Part shown: one piece after another, positions 113 through 63,300 of the stretch
How positions within the stretch are numbered: position 1 is the stretch's first letter
How the letters are laid out: each line of letters begins with the position of its first letter
Assembly: GCA_964016885.1 (NCBI GenBank)
Contig: OZ024761.1
Location: 28,520,001 to 28,584,000, forward strand
DNA length: 64,000 nucleotides
Origin: Eledone cirrhosa
Lineage: Eukaryota
Direction: 5' to 3'
Notes under the pieces: model-generated
Seen by the model: the letters and a program-made list of their open reading frames with translations, nothing else
Databases searched by the model: none
Told to the model about the DNA's origin: nothing
Made by a program: the position numbers and the translations under genes

Positions 113-250
113 TAGTAGAACACTGGAGGGTTATATCCATAGTAGTAGAGCACTCAGTCCATGGGACGAGTTTGGTTAGCTGAAGATCCGCATATGGTGA
201 AACATTTGTTCTCGGTATGGTGAACTAACTGTTGTGGAACTACTTTTATA
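113..250. mobile_element. PLE pLTR-like fragment: inverted 3' terminus (113-170) joined to a sense fragment that starts just before an HHR
   Basis: 113-170 is the reverse complement of 18233-18287 (ctcgtcccatggactgagtgctctac...ccagtgttctac). 209-235 matches 18187-18213 (ttctYggtatggtgaactaactgttgtg). Flanked by (TA)n. Confidence 0.65.
178..213 (+). ncRNA. Minimal type I hammerhead ribozyme
   Basis: ag-CTGAAGA-tcc gcatat ggt-GAAA-catttg-TT-ct. Intact core, weak stem II, near-palindromic stem III, 2-bp stem I. Confidence 0.55.
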
Positions 251-278
251 TATATATATGTGTGTGTATGCATATATA

Positions 279-619
279 TCATCATCATCATCATTTCATT
301 TTACGTCCGCTTTTCCCCTGCTTGCAAGGGTGGGACGGGAACTGATGCTGGCTTGATTTCTACAGCTGGATGCCCTTTCTAACACCAACCTCATTTACAG
401 TGAGTGCTGGGTGCTTTTTTTGCCGTGGCACCTCCACGACCTCTTTGGAGTGGAATGATAGGGACCCCAGTCCCTATCATCTCATTTCTACAGCTGAGTA
501 AACTGGAGCAATGTGAAATAAAGTGTCTTGCTCAAGGAAACAACACATCACCTGGTCTAAGAATTGAACTCACAACCTTTCGATTGAAAGGCCAATGCTC
601 TAACCACTAAACATGTGCC
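279..619 (-). mobile_element. tRNA-derived SINE, family A, full length, (ATG)n tail
   Basis: Minus strand has an A-box-like ...ttagtgg, B-box gagttcaattc, core ccttgagcaagacactt, aRgggcatccagctgtagaaa, tail cggacgtaaaatga(tga)n. At least 7 copies in the window. Confidence 0.9.
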
Positions 620-829
620 TCATCTGTTGTATTTTTATACTTTACACACACACATATATATATGTGTGTGTGTAAAGTATATATATGTATATATATATAT
701 ATATGTATATGTATATATATATATATATATATATATATATATATATATATATACACACACACACAAATACACACATACATATATATATGTGTGTGTGTGT
801 AAAGTATAAAAATACAACAGATGATGAGG
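618..829. repeat. Inverted repeat with microsatellite centre
   Basis: tcatctgttgtatttttatactttacacacac (620-651) mirrors gtgtgtgtaaagtataaaaatacaacagatga (793-824). Confidence 0.8.
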
Positions 830-1117
830 TTCGATGAAGATATATATTAGTTTCACACTTAATATAATAGGAGTAGTCTTATATATATAGTTTAGGTGAT
901 TCAGTAAATTACTGGTGGTGGTATCGATAGACTTTGACAAGCTGATATATAAAACAGTTGATGCAGGATATTGGGAGTTGAATTGTCTGAAAATATACAT
1001 CGGATTAGCGGTTGTTTTAGGTGTGCTCATTTACAAATTAACAAAACACGTTTCAGTTACATAATAAATTCGATTGAGAAATTGGTGTAGTCATGTCATT
1101 TATTAATTTATATATAT

Positions 1118-1450
1118 GATGGCTGCAGACTCTGTTAAGAGTATTGTAATCGCTTGTCAGATTACAGAAAATGGTGTACTTTTAGGCTACGGTCAACCAC
1201 ATGAACTTGTAACAGATCCTGACCAGGCAATGCCTGTGCTTTGAAGGGTTTTTTTTAAGTGAGGAAAGGCCTTGCACTCGACCAATCCAACTCTCTGAGC
1301 ATCGAAAACATTACCCAAAAAGGAGAGCTGGTCAACATCATTGAAGGCTTCGGAAGCCGCAGGTTTTTTTTTCTTTTCATAGTTTCCCTCTCTTAGAAAG
1401 GTGTTGTGAAAACAACTGGGGGCCTTTCACTTCCAGGCAAAAAAAAAAAA
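1118..1450. repeat. Dispersed repeat, homologous to 6942-7290; possibly derived from an RTE 5' UTR
   Basis: Shared blocks in the same order: tgatggct, atcgctt, atgcctgtgctt, ttttaagtgRggaaaggc, ccaatcc, ctctctgaRcatc, ttacccaaa, acatcatt. Confidence 0.65.
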
Positions 1451-1709
1451 AGTACTATTTGGATAGCTGTTGACTACATATATATAAATATATAGATATA
1501 ATTGAATGGTTAGTACACTTTCCATCCATAGTTAATATGTTCATCACACTGGTGGTTTTAACTCCCTCATGATTGAACACATATGTACTCTCTATATGCT
1601 GATTTATAAAAAGCCTGGAATCTGTTCCTTGAGCTCATTGAATTATAGGGGATGATGTGAGCCTTTAACTCTACTAATTATTTTGATATATATATATATA
1701 TATATATAT

Positions 1710-1856
1710 AGGGTGGGTAAAATTCCCAAGATCCATGGACGAGTTCTCTCCAGCGGTCTCTGTCCTTCATCATCACTGCTACGTTCTGTGTCTCCAGGAG
1801 ACCAGTGTCTGTCTTTAGGGCATCAACATATGTCAACCTCGGTCTCGCTCATCTAG
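1710..1856 (-). mobile_element. RTE-clade LINE, 3' end of ORF (cut by the gap)
   Basis: Minus-strand translation ARPRLTYVDALKTDTGLLETQNVAVMMKDRDRWRELV matches the RTE C-terminal pattern RP..TY.D.L..DTG...M.DR..W. Confidence 0.75.
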
Positions 1857-2056
1857 NNNNNNNNNNNNNNNNNNNNNNNNNNNNNNNNNNNNNNNNNNNN
1901 NNNNNNNNNNNNNNNNNNNNNNNNNNNNNNNNNNNNNNNNNNNNNNNNNNNNNNNNNNNNNNNNNNNNNNNNNNNNNNNNNNNNNNNNNNNNNNNNNNNN
2001 NNNNNNNNNNNNNNNNNNNNNNNNNNNNNNNNNNNNNNNNNNNNNNNNNNNNNNNN
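1857..2056. other. Assembly gap (200 N)
   Basis: Run of N. Confidence 1.
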
Positions 2057-60249: not shown

Positions 60250-60552
60250 ACATACATACACATACGCGTACATTAACATATGCGTTAACGTTGTGCATAT
60301 ATTTACATAGACATGCAACAACACACAAATGCATGCACACGCACACATTTACATAGCCATGTGCACTCACAGATGCATACACACACACACAAACACATTC
60401 ACATACATACACATACGCGTACATTAACATATGCGTTAACGTTGTGCATATATTTACATAGACATGCAACAACACACAAATGCATGCACACGCACACATT
60501 TACATAGCCATGTGCACACACAGATGCATACACACACACACAAACACATTCA
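60250..60552. repeat. 151-bp tandem duplication
   Basis: catacgcgtacattaacatatgcgttaacgttgtgc at 60261 and 60412. Confidence 0.9.
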
Positions 60553-60914
60553 CATGCACACATATGAGTACATTCACATAGACATGCACACACACACACA
60601 TTCACATATACAAAGACACACACACACACATGCATTCACTCATACATGCCTACACACACATACATTCACAGACATAAACATATGCACACAGACACACCCA
60701 TATATACATACACACACTCACGCATATTCATACACATACACACGTACACACATTCACACATACATACATACACACACACACACGGATACATACACAAACA
60801 CACACATTCACATAGATATGCACACACATTCACACAGACACATACACACATACAGATATATATACACACACATTCACACACACTCACATTTACACACACA
60901 CACAAAATCACACA

Positions 60915-61790
60915 ACACATTAACACAGCCACAGACACACACAGATACACACACATACACACGCTCACATTCACACACACACACACACTCACACGTACAC
61001 ATTAACACAGCCCCAGGCACACACAGACAGACAGAGCCATACACACACACGCTCACATTTACACATATACACACACACACGCTCACATTTACACATATAC
61101 ACACTCACACGTACACATTAACACAGCCACAGGCACACACAGACAGATAGAGCCATACACACACACACACACACACGCTCACATTTACACACACACACAC
61201 GCACACTCACACGTATACATTAACACAGCCACAGGAACACACAGATAGACAGAGCCATACACACACACACACACACACGCTCACATTTACACACACACAC
61301 GCACACTCACACGTACACATTAACACAACCACAGGTACACACACACAGACAGAGCCATACACACACACACACACACACACACTCACTCACACTCACACGT
61401 ACACATTAACACAGCCACACACACACAGACAGAGCCACACACACACACACACTCACACGTACACATTAACACAGCCACAGGTACACACACACAGACAGAG
61501 CCATACACACACACACACACGCACACTCACACGTACACATTAACACAGCCACAGGTACACACACAGAGACAGAGCCATACACACACACACACTCACACGT
61601 ACACATTAACACAGCCACAAGTACACACACAGAGACAGAGCCATACACACACACACACACACGTACACATTAACACAGCCACAGGTACACACACACAGAC
61701 AGAGCCACACACACACGCACACGCACACTCACAGGTACACATTAACACAGCCACAGGTACACAAACAGAGACAGAGCCACACACAGACAC
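60915..61790. repeat. ~60-bp CA-rich minisatellite
   Basis: Repeated cactcacacgtacacattaacacagccacagg...acagagcca. Confidence 0.9.
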
Positions 61791-62184
61791 CTGATATAGC
61801 GATAGTGTGATTGTGTGCACCTGGATGAGTAGAGAGAAGAAAGTATTGAACACTGATAATTGTATTGAAGAAATGTAATGATCTCAGAATTAATAATGAT
61901 TTCTTACAGAGATATTGATATTGGTCCATTGATTAGGAGATAGGCTGACTGTACTGGGACTACATTTACTGATGCTAGGAGGACAAATGGTGACCTCAGC
62001 AATATTATATATATATATATATACACACACATGTATATAGAGCCATACACACACACACACACGCTCACATTTACACACACACACACTCACATATATACAC
62101 ACACATGTATATATATATATATGACAAAGTAAAACCTACTACAGTCAGTAGGCATCTCTAACAAAATACACCCCCGTCCCACCA

Positions 62185-62732
62185 CCCCCAGCCCATCCAC
62201 ACCGCCCCTTTCAATGTAAAGTTAGGTTGGTGCCACAAAATCCAGGCCGAAACAAATGAGATCGTGTAGGTGTCACGACAAAAAAACACACAGTCCATGC
62301 TGTAATGTGACCGTGTAGGCAACACGGTAAAAACCTCCCAGCCCCACACTGTAAATGTGGTTGGTGTTAGGAAGGGCATCCAGCTGTAGAAAACCCGCCA
62401 GACAGTCCACGCTGTAATGTGGCCGTGTAGGCAACACGGTAAAAACCTCCCAGCCCCACACTGTAAATGGGGTTGGTGTTAGGAAGGGCATCCAGCTGTA
62501 GAAAACCCGCCAGACAGTCCACGCTGTAATGTGGCCGTGTAGGCAACACGGTAAAAACCTCCCAGCCCCACACTGTAAATGTGGTTGGTGTTAGGAAGGG
62601 CATCCAACTGTAGAAAACTCGCCAGACAGTCCTATGCGAGCAAGACAACCACTCTTGCCTCAAGTGGGAAAACTCCCGTCCAAACCTATGCAAGCGTGGA
62701 ACATGGACGTTAAACGATGATGATGATGATGA
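62185..62732 (+). mobile_element. SINE A-related 3' half with an internal ~117-bp unit in three tandem copies
   Basis: gtgtaggcaacacggtaaaaacctcccagccccacactgtaaatg..ttaggaagggcatcca x3; (gat)n tail. Confidence 0.85.
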
Positions 62733-62737
62733 TATAT

Positions 62738-62943
62738 AACGAAGGAAATGTGGTAAGGAACCAGATGGACCATAACGCACCAAAGTACTCAATACTTAGG
62801 GTAGTAGAGTGGGAAATAGGAACAAGTAGGACCCCGACAGCTGAGCTCAAGCCGTTTCGACGGCTAATTCTGGACTTCATTTAGTCCAGAATTAGCTGTC
62901 GAAACGGCTTGAGCTCAGCCGTCGGGGTCCTACTTGTTCCTAT
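62738..62943 (-). mobile_element. Family E fold-back element
   Basis: ~125-bp hairpin ataggaacaagtaggacccc...ggggtcctacttgttcctat. Confidence 0.82.
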
Positions 62944-63021
62944 ATATATATATATATATATATATATATATATATATATATAAATATATATATAAATATA
63001 TATATAGAGAGATAGAGAGAG

Positions 63022-63300
63022 AGATAAATCTACCACTCAATGGTAGGGTCTAAACCGTATAAAGAACTCAATGTAATCCATATGTAGATGTCGTGAAACA
63101 AAGTTTAAAATACAAAAACTTTATCAACGATATAATTCAATTGGATACAGAGTCAAAATAGAAATATTAAAACAATGAAATTAAACACAAAACTGTTAAT
63201 TCATAGTAAAACTCATTATTTTACGATCGTTTCTGGGGTGTAGTTCCCTGTATGTTCATTCAATTATTGATCTATGTAAAACATATTACAAAATATCATA
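63022..63300 (-). mobile_element. Inverted pLTR with the 3' half of an HHR (GAAA-cgatcg-TA)
   Basis: Homologous to 10792-11160; abuts the GIY-YIG remnant. Confidence 0.7.

Follow-up and report, generated by a model that had tools for sequence, protein, structure and literature searches.

Hammerhead motifs in a 64-kb stretch of the Eledone cirrhosa genome: probable relics of Penelope-like elements and of a retrozyme-like repeat

A stretch of 64,000 nucleotides of the Eledone cirrhosa genome (OZ024761.1:28,520,001-28,584,000, assembly GCA_964016885.1; genome of 3.0 Gb), here called the window, carries thirteen sites that resemble the type I hammerhead ribozyme. Our analysis indicates that these sites are very probably real type I motifs, most of them the 3' tips of 5'-truncated insertions of Penelope-like elements (PLEs). 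The explanation that we favour as a whole, with a probability of about 0.8, combines such PLE relics with one retrozyme-like repeat, family E, that is moved by PLE enzymes. Most of the thirteen motifs are likely unable to cut where they now lie.

The initial annotation had described thirteen hammerheads with the order stem I-CUGANGA-stem II-GAAA-stem III-UH-stem I. When all of them were read on both strands, this topology or a decayed copy of it was found at each of the thirteen places, six on the plus and seven on the minus strand (Table 1; sites are named by the position of the core nucleotide C3 and the strand). The eight canonical or covariant cores that had been claimed are present as well: The core is canonical or has the U3-A8 variant at 180+, 7596-, 8338-, 10977+, 11632+, 16089-, 27981- and 43518-. 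The remaining five deviate, with A6G at 7774+, U4C at 9692+, U4A at 37820-, both U4C and G5A at 39167+, and A13C at 39490-. Comparison with relatives revealed that the 5' arm of stem I is gone at a truncation or inversion junction in 180, 10977 and 16089, and the core together with the stems of the respective family is kept at 7596, 8338, 11632, 27981 and 43518. If type I is taken to mean the core CUGANGA/GAAA/UH or its U3-A8 variant plus three stems, five of the 13 sites qualify fully and eight by their core. A weak hammerhead relic that had not been listed before lies at 41831-41919(-). Rfam gave no match to the sites at gathering score. At E<=10, the region 7450-8420 with its three motifs had 26 matches, none of them to a hammerhead family, and for the whole window, in which (TA)n and other simple repeats are abundant, microRNA models on simple repeats dominated and no hammerhead was among the 150 of 717 matches that were listed. 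The minimal forms appear to depart from the curated Rfam models, which lowers the case for "canonical type I" but not that for "hammerhead".

A strict descriptor, which demands the exact core, stems I and II of at least 3 bp and a palindrome-like stem III and allows a mismatch or an extra base at the foot of stem II, recovers three of the 13 sites in the window, none in the reversed and letter-swapped sequences, and on average 0.05 matches in 20 block shuffles. In 45 evenly spaced pieces of 10 kb from the genome (449.6 kb), the same descriptor found 33 matches, as compared to 1, 0 and 3 in the reversed, A/T-swapped and G/C-swapped sequences and 0-2 in each of five shuffles, i.e. an excess of about 25-fold over the controls. 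Bootstrapping extrapolates this to 1.2-3.2x10^5 strict matches genome-wide, with a median of 2.1x10^5. If stem I may be as short as 2 bp, the window has six matches (180, 8338, 11632, 27981, 43518 and the unrelated 18002), with a mean of 0.3 in the shuffles. With one core change allowed, the 7-8 matches in the window are barely above the 1-7 of the controls, and in the genome sample the controls yield between a third and half as many matches as the real sequence. Since the background is this high, the decayed sites rest on homology and not on the descriptor: Eleven of the 13 sites match intact hammerheads elsewhere in the genome across both halves of the core (E 6e-6 to 4e-65), with 0 clusters for the reversed and A/T-swapped controls and 5 for the G/C-swapped one. 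Site 27981 has 99-100% identity to many genomic copies, and 39167 is 76% like 8338.

When the stems were left free one at a time in 600 kb of sequence, the dropped feature returned by itself (controls, 0-4 matches). A free stem I reached at least 4 bp in 26 of 33 matches, a free stem II at least 2 bp in 36 of 36, and a free stem III was a perfect or near palindrome in 35 of 47, in agreement with the palindromic stem III noted initially. The density of about one motif per 5 kb holds when relics are counted together with motifs. The window is, however, not as special as had been assumed: With 0.47 strict matches per 10 kb it lies below both the genome sample (0.73) and the neighbouring 150 kb (1.53; 23 matches), so that a local enrichment is rejected and the window appears ordinary for its genome.

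The motifs sort into nine repeat families, A to I, as expected from the earlier mention of several unrelated families. Patterns for six of the nine, i.e. all but A, D and G, have 97,016 exact matches in the whole genome and none when reversed: 53,874 for B (whose pattern fixes only the core, stem III and the 3' arm of stem I), 18,390 for H, 10,238 for I, 6,645 for C, 4,252 for F and 3,617 for E. The last count comes from a longer-gap pattern, since a short-gap version (52 matches) misses most copies because of their longer stem II.

The origin from PLEs or retrozymes that had been suggested is supported. Five families (B, C, D, G and I), which account for eight motifs, are clearly the 3' ends of PLEs with reverse transcriptase (RT)/GIY-YIG genes. 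For family G, the motif follows a 777-aa RT/GIY-YIG frame at a distance of 1.1-1.7 kb in all four full copies fetched. For family B, PLE genes are found inside all eight inverted pairs, 2.5-3.7 kb wide, that were chosen from the first places listed, and for family I they are enclosed by four of five inverted pairs. Family C is accompanied by a PLE gene at 11 of 19 other loci and in three of three pairs, and family D is linked to PLEs at loci L156/L281, L163, L164 and L040. Three more families (A, F and H) are tentatively assigned to PLE 3' ends: A has a PLE gene 174-192 nt upstream at one locus (L173/L310), F a PLE link at one of 20 loci plus one earlier case, and H has PLE pieces in one clear pair out of five stretches fetched. 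In the window itself, both PLE gene fragments (Table 1) are preceded by an inverted copy of their own 3' end, and the motif pairs 7539/7766 and 8297/9689 are each the two arms of a single insertion on opposite strands; this inverted, 5'-truncated structure stands next to simple repeats. In Pfam searches the PLE fragments of the window score below the cut-off, and the RT was confirmed on full copies. The linker motifs are CxCX5C in A, B, C and D and CX4CxxC in G and I. The former is given for Hydra and the latter for Neptune/Nematis PLEs (PMC8557442), and the linkers thus point to Hydra-type elements for A to D and to Neptune-type elements for G and I. The family G PLE is very young, with 150 scored copies that are 99-100% identical in protein and many open 777-aa frames. 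In families G and I there is also a separate upstream frame of 427-455 aa, which has no match in Pfam.

We propose that the motif sits close to the 3' end of PLE transcripts and that reverse transcription would begin at a (TA)n target, 50-200 nt further downstream than the cut site, and mostly end early. In line with the cited papers, an early stop after 3' priming would make the hammerhead the part that is copied most often, far more often than the gene, and may thus account for the high density of motifs. Cutting would take place in tandem precursors, where the palindromes of two motifs would pair, while lone and inverted copies likely do not cut.

Several observations weigh against a PLE origin of all these motifs. 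The links are thin for A (a single locus), F and H, and for H no PLE piece was found upstream within 1.5 kb in 20 loci. In an unbiased set of 664 kb, a PLE protein lies at most 2 kb upstream on the same strand for only 4 of 70 motifs; such a number is expected if most copies are truncated, and the link is established family by family and not copy by copy. The idea that much of the seemingly unique DNA is PLE or retrozyme debris went too far, as the delimited elements cover 6,075 of the 33,923 non-tandem bases (18%).

Two PLE families appear to have multiplied with a changed core, with A13C in about 10,000 copies of family I and U4C in about 6,000 of family C. Among the first 100 matches listed for each family, C13 is present in 97 and C4 in 94; since nearly all listed copies share them, these are states of the families and not decay. 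The canonical core at 8338 probably arose from CCGA by CpG decay, and the CCAA at 39167 would fit such decay on the opposite strand. The base A13 belongs to the conserved core of the hammerhead. We considered whether the A13C motif could be an insertion after G12, and rejected this since it would remove the A15.1-U16.1 pair. A13C was not found named in literature searches that covered few subscription papers. The 2017 study of Lunse and colleagues, cited in PMC6765202, may already contain some of these variants. Both U4C and the U.U foot of stem II are in print (PMC3088659, PMC7229834). It is tempting to speculate that cleavage is dispensable for these PLEs, so that the motif merely rides along and the A13C and U4C families have spread with a dead or nearly dead ribozyme. 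Families I and C were indeed amplified with C13 and C4, PLE genes are attached to family I while a sister family of I keeps GAAA, and the function of hammerheads in PLEs is described as unclear, with the possibility that hammerheads parasitise PLEs (PMC8557442). However, the three stems stay paired in both families, and across families the stems covary around a constant core. Moreover, U4C occurs in a viroid, where it lowers activity in vitro yet permits infection (PMC3088659). We regard dispensable cleavage as a minority possibility.

Motif 11632 belongs to family E, a non-coding unit of 540 nt that fairly probably moves as a retrozyme via PLE enzymes. The window holds 1.3 copies, and arrays of up to six whole units are present elsewhere; 43 of 90 distinct copies have a tandem neighbour on the same strand, with a period of 511-593 nt. 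Each unit has one type I hammerhead and is not accompanied by a long frame. In the aligned copies, 98% of the cells in the stems are paired, two-sided changes affect four of 15 pairs, and the covariation score exceeds those of all 500 shuffles; the compensatory changes among the subfamilies fall in stems I and II. The insertions end like those of PLEs: Of the 66 terminal copies, 36 stop about 70 nt beyond the cut and the other 30 about 190 nt beyond it, with (TA)n at the end in 63 cases; one short and one long arm are combined in 18 of 20 inverted pairs. The coding family C shares this pair of ends (about 63-74 and 199 nt from G12), and a one-sided tail has been described for PLE insertions (PMC8557442). 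Because the ends of E lie beyond the cut site, we infer that the template was a circle, a multimer or uncut RNA and not a simple cut linear monomer. In structure predictions, each of 20 monomers folded as a circle is more stable than its shuffles (z -1.6 to -7.7; 12 shuffles each), the linear unit has a z of -5.35, and the cut site is paired with a strand from the middle of the unit in 17 of 20 circular monomers. This locking duplex clearly beats shuffles in eight of 11 subfamily monomers, and in a subfamily whose 3' arm gains a base the locking strand gains matching bases. Tandem E transcripts would cut themselves into 540-nt monomers, these would be ligated to circles in which the internal strand blocks re-cutting, and the circles would be reverse-transcribed past unit length by a PLE protein, so that E would use the PLE route without a gene of its own.

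The case for a retrozyme is weakened by several points. Among the 21 aligned copies stem III does not vary at all, and a small number of changes between subfamilies account for the covariation. Two of five covariation measures did not exceed the shuffles (78/500 and 384/500), and the pattern used to select the sequences already prescribes part of stems I and III. The locking duplex is not clearly better than shuffled ones in three of 11 monomers (15, 28 and 38 of 200 shuffles are as good), and the locking strand is no more invariant than the rest of the unit. Moreover, E is longer than the animal retrozymes described so far (511-593 as compared to 150-450 nt), and it has a 57-nt stem/loop II of variable sequence and no recognisable contacts between loops 1 and 2, a lack that it shares with mussel retrozymes (PMC7229834). 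A comparison of E with three sequencing runs of unstated kind from one sample yielded no joint at the cut site or at an intron-like stretch, a result that is uninformative on expression.

Alternatively, E might be the terminal repeat of an unfound coding PLE, the arrays being tandem pseudo-long terminal repeats (pLTRs) or satellite expansions at the DNA level. The insertion ends are of the PLE type, a GTAAGT word that resembles a 5' splice site and a pyrimidine tract follow the hammerhead in 13 of 13 aligned monomers, PLE repeats can hold introns (PMC4209133), and only about 50 of several thousand loci were read. Yet no genes border the arrays, which instead have inverted truncated copies and (TA)n on their flanks, and subfamilies that are 69-97% alike keep the whole unit; we judge this origin to be unlikely. 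Two candidate coding parents (L237 and L235) turned out to be one-off junctions: In each case, 19 of 19 other copies of the gene have no E unit behind them, and those inspected carry a different hammerhead of their own.

Some further observations concern family E and possible relatives. At 11721-11802, the E hammerhead is followed by GTAAGTAAGT, the pyrimidine tract and CTGCATAG, an arrangement that resembles an intron of 74-78 nt; the GTAAGT is kept in all 13 subfamily monomers and the final AG in only three. At L235:2477-3300 (82.32 Mb on its contig), the end of a PLE gene is fused directly to a 5'-truncated E unit and its own 3' end is missing; this single case is possibly a template switch by the PLE reverse transcriptase, in which event it would identify an element that mobilises E. 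In some other hammerhead families, two motifs lie on the same strand at a spacing of 310-322 nt (L138:251-561, L335:189-499 and L099:757-1079), and these may be further, shorter retrozymes.

It had been suggested that any transcript across the region would carry several potential cut sites. This could not be confirmed: The paired copies 7539/7766 and 8297/9689 lie on opposite strands and form no dimer in one RNA, and the sole same-strand pair from a close family (37820/43518) has U4A in one member. The motifs 9692 and 39167 share a strand, and both have changed cores. Thus, a host transcript over the window would contain at most one intact motif on the plus or four on the minus strand, none with an intact partner on the same strand. 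Isolated motifs rarely fold into the hammerhead as the lowest-energy monomer, which counts against our explanation as a whole; for eight motifs of the window, no clear lowest-energy hammerhead was obtained except in part for 7596 and 11632, a result that is expected for dimer types and is not used as evidence. An action of the motifs on host transcripts that cross the region, as co-opted or incidental self-cleavage sites, is favoured by the presence of intact motifs on both strands. The families E and H, with a stem III of 3-4 bp, might cut alone as monomers, and axolotl motifs with U.U at the base of stem II cut to 22% in an hour as monomers (PMC7229834). The scarcity of intact motifs speaks against such a role, as do the minimal hammerheads of PLEs, which cut poorly and need dimers (no activity as monomers and low activity as dimers; PMC4209133). 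Furthermore, base pairing between inverted arms would hide the motif, and no host gene has been identified, so that we consider an action on host transcripts improbable. Finally, that the motifs are chance patterns in AT-rich repetitive DNA, an idea favoured by the high background with one core change allowed and by decayed sites such as 39167 that the descriptor alone does not separate from noise, is refuted for the families by the excess of strict matches over controls, by stems and palindromes that appeared without being asked for, and by family patterns that match thousands of times but never in reverse.

The window contains additional features. At 9050-9240, an insert that resembles a short interspersed element (SINE) and has tRNA-type boxes interrupts the family C element; it is missing from most relatives. 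In several families, a stem/loop II insert of 75-100 nt is kept across copies (family D, 10984-11084 in the window; L146, L155, L130). Broken transposase frames at 45721-46431 were named Tc1/mariner-like from reading the sequence and have weak helix-turn-helix matches only. Long hairpins are present at 14241-14457 and 25385-25512, the latter with a TA-rich core between arms of a dispersed repeat that is also found at 290-345. The long ACC/AAC-rich tandem repeat at 56908-58814 has several open frames (>600 codons) and is presumably a simple repeat rather than a gene.

Table 1. Hammerhead motifs and associated elements in the window (positions within the 64,000 nt).
Feature	Position	Strand	Remarks
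Family A hammerhead relic	175..215	+	core CUGAAGA, U.U at stem II base, stem III CAUUUG; 5' arm of stem I damaged (2 bp)
Family B hammerhead	7539..7604	-	core intact, stem I of 8 bp, stem III UAUGUA; forms left arm of palindromic insertion
Family B hammerhead	7766..7831	+	A6G; right arm of the palindromic insertion of 7539..7604
Family C PLE, 3' untranslated end	8112..9790	-	about 1.5 kb on minus strand plus short inverted arm, SINE-like insert
Family C hammerhead	8297..8341	-	core CUGAUGA, C.A at stem II base, stem III CGAUUG
Family C hammerhead	9689..9733	+	U4C core of the family, stem III damaged
Family D hammerhead	10977..11103	+	core intact, stem/loop II of 101 nt, stem III CGAUCG; 5' arm of stem I replaced at inversion junction
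Family E tandem unit	11189..11910	+	1.3 copies of 540-nt non-coding unit; ends in (TA)n about 190-200 nt past predicted cut
Strand complementary to family E cleavage junction	11440..11455	+	half a unit away; predicted lock in monomer or circle
Family E hammerhead	11627..11714	+	intact; stem I of 5 bp, stem II of 6 bp after a C.A, stem III CUAAUUAG; cut predicted after 11709
Family F minimal hammerhead	16058..16089	-	core intact, one A added after A9, stem III CG; 5' arm of stem I lost
Inverted 3' end of young family G PLE	27831..28317	-	
Family G hammerhead	27941..27984	-	U3-A8 core UUGAAAA, G-C first in stem II, stem III CCGG
Family G PLE gene, RT thumb to GIY-YIG part	28306..29264	+	cut at both ends; 777-aa frame in full copies
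Family H hammerhead relic	37778..37824	-	U4A
Family C-related relic	39164..39208	+	core CCAAUGA, stem III CAAUUG
Family I hammerhead	39457..39493	-	U3-A8 core with A13C (GCAA), as in the family as a whole
Family H hammerhead	43475..43521	-	intact core, U.U at stem II base, 4-bp stem III with 8-nt loop
Inverted 3' end of second PLE	63001..63315	-	holds 3' half of a family D hammerhead at 63183-63315; not in earlier list
Second PLE, GIY-YIG part	63305..63718	+	CxCX5C linker; its intact family D hammerhead about 270 nt beyond window end

Minimal PLE hammerheads have been known since 2014, and the thirteen sites alone are ordinary. What stands out is how numerous the motifs are, together with the retrozyme-like family that has PLE-type ends and the two core-changed families. 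Taken together, these observations can be read to mean that E. cirrhosa has one of the most hammerhead-dense animal genomes reported, that E is a long, viroid-like, self-locking retrozyme moved by PLEs via circles, and that the spread of A13C and U4C reflects either dispensable cleavage or an undescribed working core; as a joint reading, this falls somewhat short of an even chance. If it is true, the insertion signature of E would be direct genomic evidence for PLE enzymes that move animal retrozymes through circles. E has fixed 3' ends, a one-sided tail, inversion and a (TA)n target like the coding PLEs of the same genome, which makes the mobiliser proposal of PMC7229834 testable. The A13C and U4C families beside their sisters with normal cores allow a direct comparison that bears on the role of PLE hammerheads, which is unclear according to PMC8557442. 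With about one intact core per 14 kb that is invisible to Rfam, long introns may hold latent cut sites, provided that any motif cuts alone.

Literature searches that covered main texts and few subscription papers turned up no paper on hammerheads in octopus or other cephalopods; octopus motifs could be listed in supplements (PMC4209133, PMC7229834, PMC8557442). The axolotl genome is roughly ten times larger than that of E. cirrhosa. Its HHR_Amex1/2 retrozymes share the very high copy number (126,247 motifs) and the U.U at the base of stem II, but they are two families of canonical motifs, whereas dozens of families with mostly minimal motifs are present here (PMC7229834). The closest parallel to the coding families are the minimal hammerheads in the pLTRs of PLEs (Cervera & De la Pena 2014, PMC4209133): They are of type I with a short palindromic stem III and the U3-A8 variant, many heterogeneous families coexist in a genome, mostly as single motifs from truncated elements, close pairs lie on opposite strands, and the motifs are located downstream of RT/GIY-YIG genes. 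There, 4,000 and 9,000 motifs per genome were called remarkable, as compared to about 2x10^5 here, although the descriptors differ. G10.1-C11.1 is highly conserved in that set, whereas in E. cirrhosa a 1x1 mismatch (16 of 36), a direct G-C (5 of 36) or a direct A-U pair (10 of 36) is found; a conserved G10.1-C11.1 with one extra base after A9 is present in families G and F but not generally. Stem/loop II here reaches up to 100 nt, and two families are fixed for core changes. With the Hydra and Neptune PLEs that carry an endonuclease (Craig et al. 2021, PMC8557442), the elements share the C-terminal GIY-YIG, a CxCX5C or CX2-5CxxC linker, (TA)n targets, inverted 5'-truncated copies with a tail on one end only, and hammerheads near the 3' end; the one-sided tail is 30-40 bp there but about 120-130 nt here, and the clade is assigned here by the linker motif only. 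Family E resembles the metazoan non-LTR (long terminal repeat) retrozymes (Cervera & De la Pena 2020, PMC7229834) in its non-coding, low-GC tandem unit with one type I hammerhead, its dispersed arrays, its stable predicted circle and its co-occurrence with PLEs, but the unit of those is 150-450 nt, whereas E has 511-593 nt and is without canonical loop-loop contacts. A complementary strand over the cut site, as predicted in E, is found in plant retrozymes, viroids and some mussel circles but not in most animal ones. PLEs have been proposed as the likely but unproven mobiliser of these retrozymes (PMC7229834), and E shows PLE-type ends.

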